DNA of 64,000 nucleotides from an uncultured Sphingomicrobium sp. (GTDB lineage Bacteria; Pseudomonadota; Alphaproteobacteria; Sphingomonadales; Sphingomonadaceae). The stretch is from contig CAXSCF010000001.1 in assembly GCA_964235815.1 (NCBI GenBank), positions 26,313 to 90,312 on the forward strand, in the 5' to 3' direction. Below are positions 7,939 through 41,910 of the stretch, one piece after another; position 1 is the stretch's first letter; the number at the start of each line of letters is the position of its first letter. A program made the position numbers and the translations under genes. Below the pieces are notes generated by a model. That model did not search any database, was not told where the DNA came from, and saw only the letters and a program-made list of their open reading frames with translations.

Positions 7939-8190
7939 ATGTGGAGGGCAATCGTGAATCAGAACGCTGAAATCGAATATTTGACCCGCCGTGTTGAACA
8001 GGAACTCGACCTTGCCGACGCCGCGCGCGACCCGACGGTGGCCCGCGTTCATCGCCAGATGGCCGCGCTTTATGCTGAAAAAGTGGCCAAGTTGCGGATA
8101 GCTCCTCCCGTGCTGATCGCTGAACTGGGCGTCGCGCCCAAGGCCGTCCTTCAGACGACGATGCCTCAGCCTTCGACAAGCGCTCGGTAA
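7939..8190 (+). CDS. Small hypothetical protein, second of the tandem paralog pair
   Basis: 83-aa ORF. The GTG at 7954 is preceded by GGAGGG and gives VNQNAEIEYLTRRVEQEL, colinear with the previous ORF. Confidence 0.5.
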   Translation: MWRAIVNQNAEIEYLTRRVEQELDLADAARDPTVARVHRQMAALYAEKVAKLRIAPPVLIAELGVAPKAVLQTTMPQPSTSAR

Positions 8191-8873
8191 TTTGCTTCGG
8201 GAATTCCGTAATTGTCCATTGCTCGCTCCTCGAGCCCTTTGCGATTGACGATCGTGATATGGCCCCGGCTCGTCACGATCAATCCCGCGCCGACCAGGCT
8301 GTTGAGTGCATCGGTAACGCCGGCGCGACGTACCCCGAGCATCAACGACAAAAATTCGTGCGTCATTGGAATGCTGCTGCTTTCCGATCGATCGAAGCTC
8401 ATCAAAAGCCAGCGGCATAGGCGATTCTCGATGCTGAGCGTGGCGGTGGCGAGCGCAGTGTAGGAAATCTGGATCAGGAAGCTGTGCGCAAAGCCGAGCA
8501 CCAGACGCATGAAATCGGGACTCTTCTCGGTCATGGCGACAACTTCGGACGTGCGGATGGCATAACCTTCGCCCGGGATCTGGATAAAGATTTGCAGTGG
8601 CGAGATGGCTTTGCCCATCACGGTCGAGACGTCGACCATGCCTTCGCGCCCGATGATCCCGACTTCGGTCTGCTTGCCGTCGGCGCTGCTCGCCACGACC
8701 GATGCGACCCCCGATTCCAGAAAGAAACAGCGCTCGATCCGGACATTGGGAGTCACCAGCTGCGTCCGTTGCGGTAACGAAATGTGCGTAAGATGCGGCT
8801 CGATGCGGTCGAGATCGGCCGGCGTCAGCTGGGCGAGCAATCGATTACGGTAGTCGGCAGGCCTTGACAGCAC
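8166..8873 (-). CDS. Crp/Fnr family transcriptional regulator
   Basis: cNMP-binding-like core (RCFFLESGVASVV...GIIGREGMVD) and a C-terminal HTH (FLSLMLGVRRAGVTDALNSLVGAGLI). The start is set at the GTG at 8873 by family N-terminus length. The listed ORF begins at a TTG at 8987, and no in-frame ATG lies near the N-terminus. Confidence 0.8.
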   Translation of the reverse strand: MLSRPADYRNRLLAQLTPADLDRIEPHLTHISLPQRTQLVTPNVRIERCFFLESGVASVVASSADGKQTEVGIIGREGMVDVSTVMGKAISPLQIFIQIPGEGYAIRTSEVVAMTEKSPDFMRLVLGFAHSFLIQISYTALATATLSIENRLCRWLLMSFDRSESSSIPMTHEFLSLMLGVRRAGVTDALNSLVGAGLIVTSRGHITIVNRKGLEERAMDNYGIPEANYRALVEG

Positions 8874-25242: not shown

Positions 25243-25293
25243 TCGCTGGGTTCGCGCGCTTGCCCCCTTGCGCGGAACCATCGCCCTGCCCAT

Positions 25294-25313
25294 TTATTGT
25301 GCACTGCAGCATA
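25294..25313 (+). promoter_or_regulatory. Candidate operator TTATTGTGCACTGCAGCATA (possible PhaR-type site) upstream of the PHB-depolymerase-family esterase
   Basis: This 20-mer is identical to the one abutting the phasin RBS (41141-41160, minus strand). It contains TGC-N3-GCA and the half-palindrome TTGTGC-N6-GCATAA, with 47 nt between its end and the ATG. Confidence 0.5.
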
Positions 25314-25360
25314 ACCCTGTTGCGGGCTCCGGCGCATTGCCGTCTCACAAGGAATTCATC

Positions 25361-26491
25361 ATGCGCCGATTGGGACCGACGATCGCCCGCCTCCACGCGT
25401 TCCGCCGCGGCCTTGATCTTGGCGAAACCGGAAATGGGGGCCGCTTAAGCATCTTGACCGGCTTCGGCGCCAATCCGGGCGCCTTGTCCGCCAAGACCTA
25501 CCTTCCTGCCTCTCTCGCCCCAGGCGCCGCGCTGGTGGTCGTGCTCCACGGCTGCACGCAGCAGGCCGAGCCTTATGATCGCGGCAGTGGCTGGTCGGCG
25601 CTTGCCGAGCGCGACGGGTTCGCGCTGCTCTATCCCGAACAGGTCCGGGCCAATAATCATAATCTGTGCTTCAACTGGTACGAACCGGGCGATGCGCGGC
25701 GCGGGCGGGGCGAGGCGGCGTCGATCGCGCAGATGGTCCGCCACCTGATCGCGACACACGGCCTCGATCCGGCGCGGGTCTATATCAACGGGCTGTCGGC
25801 CGGCGGGGCGATGACCGCGGCGATCCTCGCTTGCTATCCCGAACTGTTCGCTGGCGGCGCCATCCTTGCCGGCTTGCCGTTCGCCGTCGCGACGGGGGTC
25901 CCCGAAGCGCTTGAACGGATGCGCGCGCAGGGCATGCCATCGCGCGCCGCGCTTGCCAGCCGGATCGCCGGCGCCGCCGATCATCGTGGCCCGTGGCCGA
26001 CAGTGTCGGTGTGGCACGGCACCGCCGATCATGTCGTCAGCAACGCCAATGCGGGACGGATCGTCGATCAGTGGCGCGATCGCATCGGCCTTGGCCAGGC
26101 GCCCGCGGCGCGCGACACGGTCGGCGGTCAGGCGCGCACGCGCTGGCGCGATCCCTCGGGCAAGGTGATGGTCGAACGGATCGACATCGCCGGGATGGGC
26201 CACGGCACGCCGCTCGGCACTCGCGGCGGCTTCGGGCAGGCCGGGCCGCACATGCTCGAGGTCGGACTGTGCTCGACCAGCTATCTCGCGGCGGAATGGA
26301 AATTGGGCGCGACAGCGACGCGCGAGGCAGGCGTTCGGCCAGCGGTTCACGCCATGCCCGCGATCGCTTTGCCTGCCGTTGTCGCGGCCCCCGCCCAGCC
26401 CGCCGCCCTAAGCCGCCCGGCCGTGGCGCGAGCGACAGGGGTCGGCGCGGTGATCGAGGACGCCCTGCGCGCCGCCGGCCTGATGCGTTAG
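25361..26491 (+). CDS. PHB depolymerase family esterase (esterase_phb type)
   Basis: FGANPGAL...VVVLHGCTQ...NLCFNWYEPGDARRGRGE...INGLSAGGAM. AAGGAA precedes the ATG and there is no obvious signal peptide. Confidence 0.8.
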   Translation: MRRLGPTIARLHAFRRGLDLGETGNGGRLSILTGFGANPGALSAKTYLPASLAPGAALVVVLHGCTQQAEPYDRGSGWSALAERDGFALLYPEQVRANNHNLCFNWYEPGDARRGRGEAASIAQMVRHLIATHGLDPARVYINGLSAGGAMTAAILACYPELFAGGAILAGLPFAVATGVPEALERMRAQGMPSRAALASRIAGAADHRGPWPTVSVWHGTADHVVSNANAGRIVDQWRDRIGLGQAPAARDTVGGQARTRWRDPSGKVMVERIDIAGMGHGTPLGTRGGFGQAGPHMLEVGLCSTSYLAAEWKLGATATREAGVRPAVHAMPAIALPAVVAAPAQPAALSRPAVARATGVGAVIEDALRAAGLMR

Positions 26492-40322: not shown

Positions 40323-41129
40323 TTAGGCCATGAGCTCGTTGACGCGTTCGGCATTGACGCTGGCGCGGTTCGAGATCGGCTGGATCGCTTCGCCGGCAAG
40401 CTTGACAATCTGCTCGGTCAGCTTCGAGCTTTCGGCCACCATGCGGTCGAACGACGAACGAACGATTTCCGACTGGCGCTGGAAGAACTCGGTCGGCGAC
40501 TTGGCGTCGGCGAGCGTCTTGACCGCTTCCGAAGCTTGCTCGAAGCCACTGCGGCTCGAGGCGACGACGTCTTGGCCGATCGACTTGACGCCGGCGGCAG
40601 CGATGCGGCCGGCTTCGGCAATCGCTTCGACATTGGCCTTGGCAAGGTCGGTCATTTCCTGGCCCTTGGTGACCATGTCCTGGCTTCGCACGCCGGCATC
40701 GCCGAACAGGCCCTGGAACTTGTCGGCGCCGGGCAGCTGGAAGCCGGCGAACATCTGGGTGAAATCATTGGTCATCTTGGAAGTCCTTTCGATCTGACGG
40801 TCGGCGCCGTGGGCGGCGGCCTGGGTGATACGGCGCGCATTGGTCGCGGCGCGCTGAGTGGTTTTGGCGGCAGTGTTAACGACCTTGGCCTTGGTCGTGC
40901 GGGCCGTGCCAGCGGTCGCGGTCTTGGCGCCTGTTTTGGCGGTGGCCTTGCGCGCCGTCTTGGGCTTGCGGATATTCTTGGCAACTGTCTTCGCCGCGTT
41001 CTTGCGTGCAGTCGTCGTGGCTGGTGTCGACACGGCGCTCTGGGTAACGGCTTCAACCGTGGCGGCCGTGGTCTTGGCGGCGTCGGCAACGGCCTGGATC
41101 GTCTTGTCGGTCTGGGTCTGGTCAACCAT
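40323..41129 (-). CDS. phaP: Phasin family protein with an N-terminal Lys/Ala/Thr-rich extension
   Basis: The C-terminal ~160 aa look like a Phasin_2 domain (MTNDFTQMFAGFQLPGADKF...). The ATG at 41129 lies 6 nt after AGGAGA. About 105 aa of AKT-rich low complexity precede the phasin core. Confidence 0.75.
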   Translation of the reverse strand: MVDQTQTDKTIQAVADAAKTTAATVEAVTQSAVSTPATTTARKNAAKTVAKNIRKPKTARKATAKTGAKTATAGTARTTKAKVVNTAAKTTQRAATNARRITQAAAHGADRQIERTSKMTNDFTQMFAGFQLPGADKFQGLFGDAGVRSQDMVTKGQEMTDLAKANVEAIAEAGRIAAAGVKSIGQDVVASSRSGFEQASEAVKTLADAKSPTEFFQRQSEIVRSSFDRMVAESSKLTEQIVKLAGEAIQPISNRASVNAERVNELMA

Positions 41130-41140
41130 GATGTATCTCC

Positions 41141-41160
41141 TATGCTGCAGTGCACAATAA
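41141..41160 (-). promoter_or_regulatory. Candidate operator, identical 20-mer TTATTGTGCACTGCAGCATA (minus strand), abutting the phasin RBS
   Basis: Exact match to 25294-25313, 11 nt from the phasin ATG. Confidence 0.5.
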
Positions 41161-41186
41161 GCGTGTTGCGGCAAAGTTTCAAGGTT

Positions 41187-41206
41187 TATTGTGCGTTGCA
41201 GCACAA
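41187..41206 (+). promoter_or_regulatory. Third, palindromic copy of the operator-like motif (TTATTGTGCGTTGCAGCACA)
   Basis: 17 of 20 positions match the other copies, and it contains the perfect TTGTGC-N6-GCACAA inverted repeat. It is oppositely oriented in the phasin/gmk divergent intergenic region. Confidence 0.45.
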
Positions 41207-41256
41207 GACGAATTCGAGCGCCTTGACGGCGCCCCCCGGCCAAGGCATTTGCGGAC

Positions 41257-41910
41257 ATGGCCGACCCCACTGCACCGCACATCCCGAGCCGCCGTCGCGG
41301 TCTGCTGATCGTCCTGTCGTCGCCGTCGGGGGCGGGCAAGACGACGATCAGCCACATGCTGCTCAGGGCCGATCCGGGGATCACCATGTCGATCTCGGCG
41401 ACGACCCGGCCCAAGCGCCCGGGCGAGATCGACGACGTCCATTATCACTTCGTCGATGCGGCCGGATTCAAGGCGCTGATCGACGACGGCGAACTCGCCG
41501 AATGGGCCTATGTGTTCGACCATCGCTACGGCACGCCCAAGGCGCCGATCAAGGCCGCGCTCAAGTCCGGCAGCGACATCCTGTTCGACATCGACTGGCA
41601 GGGTACGCAACAACTCGAAGCGGGGATGGGCGAGGACCTCGTCAGCATCTTCATCCTGCCGCCCTCGATGCCCGAACTCGACCGCCGCCTGCGCACCCGC
41701 GCGACCGACAGCGAAGACGTCATCGCCGATCGCATGCGTCGCGCGGCGAGCGAGATCGGGCACTGGGCCGAATATGATTATGTCCTGATCAACGAGGACA
41801 TGGATCGTTGCCTCGAAGATGTGAAGGCGATCGTCGCCGCCGAACGGCTCAAGCGGACGCGGCAGCCGGGGCTGGTGGCGTTCGTGCGCGAACTGGTCGA
41901 GCGGCCTTAG
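41257..41910 (+). CDS. gmk: Guanylate kinase
   Basis: GLLIVLSSPSGAGKTTI P-loop and Gmk body, 217 aa. Confidence 0.9.
   Translation: MADPTAPHIPSRRRGLLIVLSSPSGAGKTTISHMLLRADPGITMSISATTRPKRPGEIDDVHYHFVDAAGFKALIDDGELAEWAYVFDHRYGTPKAPIKAALKSGSDILFDIDWQGTQQLEAGMGEDLVSIFILPPSMPELDRRLRTRATDSEDVIADRMRRAASEIGHWAEYDYVLINEDMDRCLEDVKAIVAAERLKRTRQPGLVAFVRELVERP

Follow-up and report, generated by a model that had tools for sequence, protein, structure and literature searches.

Genes and Repeated Sequence at the Locus

The stretch of DNA analyzed here (64,000 nt, hereafter the window) includes a gene for a protein of the Esterase_PHB family and, on the opposite strand, a gene for a phasin, and the same 20-mer precedes both (Table 1). 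The esterase matches the NCBIfam model NF050058 (type-1 catalytic domain scl-PHA depolymerase) with 305 bits (cut-off 150), TIGR01840 with 206 bits and the Pfam family Esterase_PHB (PF10503) with 119 bits, and the closest solved structure is 8DAJ, described as 'Esterase, PHB depolymerase family'. The sole GLSAG lipase box (S146) is preceded by an oxyanion HG (residue 63), and both motifs are invariant in 12 homologues. On the basis of hydropathy the protein has no hydrophobic N-terminal segment, the first hydrophobic stretch occurring no earlier than residue 52, and no Pfam domain is found C-terminal of residue 256. Its named relatives come from Sphingomonas or Sphingomicrobium metagenome-assembled genomes, and it shares 50% identity over 100% of the length with the product of positions 1115368–1116459 (minus strand) of plasmid pSymA of Sinorhizobium (S.) meliloti 1021. 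The enzyme thus probably degrades PHB in the cytoplasm by means of a type-1 catalytic domain and belongs to the class represented by SMa1961, PhaZ3, and PhaZd.

The C-terminus of the esterase consists of a Pro/Ala-rich linker followed by a 17-residue tail, GVGAVIEDALRAAGLMR (window 26380–26491, residues ~340–376; positions 1400–1492 in the related locus L081). In 12 homologues with 58–70% identity, 13 of the 17 positions are invariant and three more are conserved at 90% or above; the tail is also common to SMa1961 of S. meliloti, where it reads AVIERALRSAGLMR. It stands where extracellular depolymerases have their substrate-binding domain, and a role in granule targeting or partner binding would be a guess.

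The phasin matches Phasin_2 with 82 bits. Its residues 1–156 (window 40662–41129) are rich in Ala, Thr, and Lys, carry a net charge of +16 and have no Pfam match; homologues differ widely here in both length and sequence. The region somewhat recalls the basic histone-like tails of PhaF and PhaM, which tether granules to the nucleoid. Divergent from the phasin gene lies the guanylate kinase gene gmk (41257–41910), an arrangement present in 61 of the 61 related loci where gmk was found. On the strand of gmk, 59/62 loci keep a CTTGAC (41222–41227 in the window) just past the distal phasin box. Only ~6 nt lie between a possible -10 element and the gmk ATG, so that gmk may be transcribed without a leader. 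Since the distal box stands ~61 nt upstream of the gmk start region, PhaR might also influence gmk.

The 20-mer, TTATTGTGCACTGCAGCATA, occurs exactly at 25294–25313 (plus strand) and at 41141–41160 (minus strand). The first copy is separated from the esterase ATG (25361) by 47 nt (25314–25360) and the second from the phasin ATG (41129) by 11 nt (ggagatacatc), the AGGAGA that precedes the phasin gene being formed by the final A of the 20-mer plus GGAGA. The flanks diverge right at the ends of the 20-mer (ccaT/Accc at the esterase, acgc/Ggag at the phasin). The original prediction, which described a PHB-depolymerase-family esterase with no obvious signal peptide, a phasin and an identical 20-mer before both, at 47 and 11 nt from the respective ATGs and in contact with AGGAGA, is borne out in each of these particulars by the exact search, the profile matches and the hydropathy analysis. 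A third copy, which it had missed, was found at 41186–41205 (plus strand): TTATTGTGCGTTGCAGCACA has 3 mismatches to the 20-mer, is inverted with respect to the phasin gene and has its centre 46 bp from that of the proximal copy.

Table 1. Features of the esterase and phasin loci in the window.
Feature	Position	Strand	Description and basis
Candidate -35 of the esterase promoter, CTTGCGC	25267..25273	+	Putative; CTTGC recurrence in aligned sphingomonad orthologues
Putative single PhaR box, esterase	25294..25314	+	TTATTGTGCACTGCAGCATAA, the 20-mer + 1 base; centre 25304
Esterase_PHB-family gene	25361..26491	+	376 aa; Pfam/NCBIfam matches, homology to SMa1961
Phasin gene	40323..41129	-	268 aa; Phasin_2 domain at residues 157–255
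Putative proximal PhaR box, phasin	41140..41160	-	TTATTGTGCACTGCAGCATAG; centre 41150; includes -10, adjoins ribosome-binding site
Phasin -10, TATTGT	41159–41154	-	Promoter scan; inside proximal box
Phasin -35, TTGAAA	41177..41182	-	Promoter scan; 17 nt upstream of TATTGT
Putative distal PhaR box, phasin	41186..41206	+	TTATTGTGCGTTGCAGCACAA, inverted; centre 41196; directly upstream of -35

A sequence CTGCAG, which is the recognition sequence of PstI, is central in the 20-mer. The centre of the box varies in orthologues (for instance CAGTGCAG and CAGCGCAG), and CTGCAG therefore looks incidental rather than a target of restriction or methylation.

Fit to Published PhaR Motifs

Two operator motifs of the PHB-responsive repressor PhaR (also AniA) have been defined experimentally in rhizobia. 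The consensus of Bradyrhizobium (B.) diazoefficiens, TGCRNYGCASMA, derives from DNase I footprints on phaP1 and phaP4 together with gel-shifted promoters (PMC6201568), and the 21-bp palindrome of S. meliloti, WNWDDNYGCRNYGCRNHHWNW, with AT-rich arms, derives from a regulon-wide search and gel shifts with point mutants (PMC12542648).

The B. diazoefficiens consensus has 6 exact matches in the 64-kb window against 1.0 expected, a number that no shuffled sequence reached. All 6 correspond to three boxes read on both strands, namely the single box before the esterase and the two boxes before the phasin, and none lies elsewhere in the 64 kb. To the S. meliloti palindrome the esterase box (25294–25314) has 0 mismatches and the phasin boxes 1 each; this degenerate motif is by itself not enriched in the window (6 matches, 6.3 expected), so that the match counts only as fit. 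The three boxes follow the plan of an imperfect 21-bp palindrome, TTAT-NN-TGCA-N-TGCA-NN-ATAA, in which 16/21 (esterase), 14/21, and 12/21 positions are self-complementary, as fits binding by a symmetric protein. In addition, the reverse strand of the 20-mer (CTGC-AGT-GCAC) agrees with the PhaR site of Rhodobacter (R.) sphaeroides, CTGCNNNGCAG, at 7 of 8 specified bases.

Sphingomonads presumably encode PhaR. A probe for this protein scores 107 bits with Pfam PHB_acc_N and 69 bits with PHB_acc and retrieves annotated alphaproteobacterial phaR genes at E ~1e-23 to 1e-25. It found nothing at E ≤ 10 in the 64-kb window, in keeping with the statement of the original prediction that phaR is not among the genes there; the same probe found no phaR in 161 related loci and gave no sphingomonad matches on plasmids. 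The searchable literature yielded no experimentally tested PhaR operator in any sphingomonad, and the paper on Caenibius does not treat the PhaR of that organism.

Conservation of the Boxes in Orthologous Loci

A scan of one genome per species yielded 80 esterase loci from Sphingomonadales, Hyphomicrobiales, and Acetobacteraceae; since the scan patterns included the C-terminal tail, all 80 are of the SMa1961 type. An exact match to TGCRNYGCASMA lies within -300 to +60 of the start in 72 of them, and a box with one mismatch takes the same position in 6 of the other 8, giving a total of 78/80. The remainder of the same loci supplies the background, which amounts to 13 sites in 512 kb or ~0.009 per 360 bp. 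The box centre usually stands 57–83 nt before the ATG (57 nt in the window) and conservation is limited to approximately -10 to +8 around it, with the consensus TTATTGTGCAGTGCAGCAA; the arm positions -10 to -5 are conserved though they were absent from the search pattern. A pattern-free count of 8-mers in the 80 upstream regions returned fragments of the box only.

The 13 extra boxes of the esterase loci are mostly inside long ORFs or beside small ones, and no further member of the regulon emerged among them. Two are intergenic (L010, 1590–1930, and L012, 6503–6864; Rhizobium and Sphingomonas genomes) and precede ORFs of 93 and 79 aa by 49 nt and 111 nt, respectively; these ORFs could be additional small PhaR targets.

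For the phasin, 80 metagenomic loci were gathered, of which 61 were usable, and the boxes were analyzed independently of start-codon calls. Two boxes 45–49 bp apart are present in 59/61 usable loci. Promoter elements were counted in the 62 phasin loci that possess both boxes and for which 45 nt or more of upstream DNA is available: every one of them (62/62) has a TTGAAA-like hexamer in the stretch flanked by its boxes (exact TTGAAA in 55/62), and the spacing of this hexamer to a TATTGT-like hexamer in the proximal box is 17–19 nt in 62/62 and 17–18 nt in 61/62. These counts suggest that sphingomonad phasin promoters have a fixed layout composed of a box, the -35 element, 17–18 nt and a -10 element embedded in the second box. 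The promoter in the window has this layout, and its proximal operator would therefore contain the -10 element and the likely transcription start, with the distal one adjoining the -35 element.

A strict sigma-70 scan upstream of the esterase gene detected no promoter. The candidate -35 element in Table 1 was chosen because CTTGC, though weakly conserved, recurs in sphingomonad orthologues ~33–36 nt before the box centre. The -10 element may reside in ATTTAT(T) (~25292–25298), where it would overlap with the left, AT-rich arm of the box, and the transcription start presumably lies within the box. This geometry agrees with the start of SMa1961, mapped 14 nt into its own box (PMC12542648). Occlusion of the esterase promoter is accordingly suggested by analogy with SMa1961 and by the weakly conserved CTTGC.

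Comparison with Experimentally Studied PhaR Systems

The nearest counterpart of the window is S. meliloti, for which the following is taken from one study (PMC12542648). The PhaR box of SMa1961, ATATTGTGCAGTGCAGCAACA, was reported at pSymA 1116518–1116538, 79 nt before the ATG, and this sequence can be read at exactly that position upstream of the gene matched by the window esterase. The SMa1961 protein is ~30-fold up in a phaR mutant and the activity of a SMa1961 promoter-EGFP fusion follows protein abundance; His6-PhaR shifts the box efficiently and mutations in the palindrome abolish the shift. SMa1961 is regarded there as a depolymerase by annotation and proteomic behavior. As in the window, the PhaR targets of S. 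meliloti include phasins (phaP1 and phaP2) and an Esterase_PHB-family depolymerase, with two boxes per phasin promoter and one at the depolymerase over the -10 element and start, and the first 15 nt of the phaP1 box, TTATTGTGCACTGCACAAATT, are shared with the window 20-mer. The two organisms differ in spacing and placement. According to the published coordinates, the distance between box starts in S. meliloti is 18 bp for phaP1 and 28 bp for phaP2, and both boxes are described as flanking the -35 element; the boxes of the window phasin are 46 bp apart, the distal one preceding the -35 element and the proximal one covering the -10 element. They also differ in the host, which is a rhizobium in one case and a Sphingomonadales-like metagenome-assembled genome, known from sequence, in the other.

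In B. diazoefficiens USDA110 the PhaR regulon comprises phaP1, phaP4, phaP5, phaZ1, and phaZ3 (blr0899); PhaZ3 contains an Esterase_PHB motif, its promoter is gel-shifted by PhaR at TGCAGTGCAGCA and it is de-repressed in a phaR mutant (PMC6201568). Of the cores present in the 80 esterase orthologues, that of the PhaZ3 box, TGCAGTGCAGCA, is also the most frequent. The likeness of PhaZ3 to the window esterase refers to the Esterase_PHB motif and not to a direct alignment, and the published 12-mer is without the AT-rich arms, which are conserved in the window boxes.

More distant parallels are found in other bacteria. In R. sphaeroides and Paracoccus (P.) denitrificans repression of the phasin is relieved when PhaR binds PHB (Chou and Yang, 2010; Maehara et al., 2002; both as cited in PMC12542648). 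The R. sphaeroides site and the window boxes have the core TGC-N3-GCA in common but differ at the outer positions, with the left arm CTGC in R. sphaeroides and TTGTGC in the window. Among depolymerases, PhaZd/PhaZ6 and PhaZ7 of Ralstonia (R.) eutropha H16 are intracellular enzymes with an 'extracellular type-1' catalytic domain (PMC2666664, PMC3430594). By description, the PhaZd class is like the window esterase in lacking a signal peptide, in the placement of the oxyanion His before the lipase box and in a length of ~360–380 aa; PhaZd is described without a linker, whereas the window esterase has the Pro/Ala-rich linker and 17-residue tail also seen in SMa1961.

Origin and Identity of the Shared Box

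Considered together, the match to published motifs, the homology of the esterase to the PhaR-repressed SMa1961 and the conservation of boxes and promoter architecture indicate, with a probability of roughly 90%, that the 20-mer is an operator of the PHB-sensing repressor PhaR. The original prediction had proposed a shared operator with PhaR as the leading candidate regulator and had placed the esterase in the phasin regulon; the boxes at 78/80 esterase and 59/61 phasin loci, the fit to two published motifs and the kinship with SMa1961 all lend support to this view.

It had also offered a Crp-type box as an alternative, with the Crp/Fnr-family protein encoded at 8166–8873 as a possible regulator. 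This gene is real but on the minus strand (HTH_Crp_2 at 54 bits and a weak match to cNMP_binding, the longest ORF extending to 8987), it belongs to the window, and the distal phasin box holds a perfect TGTGC-N6-GCACA where the 20-mer holds TGTGC-N6-GCATA. Nevertheless, that the boxes serve this or another regulator in place of PhaR is very improbable. When esterase sites are anchored on TGTGC-N6-GCA alone, the spacer reads RNYGCA in 51/52 cases as compared with 1/24 for the same anchor elsewhere, and spacer positions 4–6 are GCA in 51/52, contrary to the free spacer of a Crp-type site. The centre of the box is its most constrained part, which fits the PhaR core TGC-N3-GCA and not a Crp-type spacer, and the symmetry axis is set by two invariant TGCA blocks and coincides with the PhaR axis. 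Furthermore, the near-identical box of SMa1961 is bound by purified PhaR and loses binding upon point mutation (PMC12542648), and the Crp-family gene adjoins neither target, at distances of 17 kb (esterase) and 32 kb (phasin); no link between it and the boxes was found.

A PhaR operator at both genes does not in itself fully account for the perfect identity of the two copies, which is uncommon even between two PhaR boxes. Two independent draws from the profiles of the esterase box and of the proximal phasin box would be identical with a chance of ~2e-4, as against ~6e-12 per position pair from base composition, and most of the 20/20 coincidence is therefore explained by shared operator constraint. 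The remainder could come from adaptation of both boxes to one PhaR or from conversion over a short tract. A stronger version, in which the identity stems from recent copying or conversion of promoter DNA (-10 element plus leader) between the two genes instead of independent selection for a regulator site, draws on the low figure of ~2e-4 and on the -10-like TATTGT within the 20-mer, and merits very little credence. The identity ends at the borders of an operator-sized 20-mer with unrelated flanks, the esterase boxes of the nearest relatives have at least 2 mismatches to the 20-mer, pointing to independent evolution, and neither box is a recent arrival, given that the orthologous positions are occupied in distant genomes. 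Moreover, a converted tract of 20 bp would still work as an operator, and this explanation addresses the perfect identity only. The identical 20-mer also occurs at the proximal position in 7 related metagenomic phasin loci.

That the 20-mer matches by chance and has no function, or that it belongs to a mobile element or a dispersed repeat, can practically be dismissed, as no 20-mer match at ≤3 mismatches appeared in any of 100 dinucleotide-preserving shuffles of the window, in line with the ~6e-12 above and with the earlier claim that chance was unlikely, and all occurrences (≤2 mismatches) in 735 kb of related loci are phasin or esterase boxes.

Proposed Regulation and Its Meaning

On the PhaR reading, we infer that the host genome encodes PhaR and that the protein binds these boxes. 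In the absence of PHB, PhaR would sit on the boxes and block RNA polymerase, at the phasin promoter through one box just upstream of the -35 element and another over the -10 element and likely start, and at the esterase promoter through a single box over the putative -10 element and start region. As granules form, PhaR would be drawn to the polymer surface, and its titration by PHB would de-repress the granule-coat phasin and the cytoplasmic PHB depolymerase together.

The control by PhaR of a signal-peptide-less depolymerase of the Esterase_PHB family has already been published, for PhaZ3 in 2018 and for SMa1961 in 2025, and the system in the window would be a known kind of PhaR switch in a new, Sphingomonadales-like host lineage. 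The accepted model in which PhaR is titrated by PHB granules is unchanged. Besides the host lineage, three modest additions to published work are suggested by the comparisons made here: the PhaR box of this depolymerase family appears to be kept across at least three alphaproteobacterial orders, the AT-rich arms described for S. meliloti in 2025 appear to be conserved well beyond rhizobia, and the phasin promoters of sphingomonads appear to have the fixed layout given above.

A broader and rather doubtful proposal can be formulated from the retention of the box at 78/80 orthologues in three orders. The SMa1961/PhaZ3-type esterase, and not the canonical PhaZ1 type, would be the ancestral and near-universal PhaR-controlled PHB depolymerase of alphaproteobacteria; its invariant tail (AVIE[DR]ALR[AS]AGLMR) would be a signal, overlooked so far, that targets the enzyme to granules or binds a partner and replaces the substrate-binding domain of extracellular enzymes; and the identical boxes would be the highest-affinity operators of a sphingomonad PhaR. 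If this were true, the coat protein and the depolymerase would be released at the same PHB threshold.

As judged from sequence, two genes of an uncultured bacterium akin to sphingomonads thus gain a probable regulator and a probable physiological role. The esterase would be better annotated as a PhaR-controlled intracellular PHB depolymerase of the SMa1961/PhaZ3 type than as a secreted enzyme or simply as an esterase.
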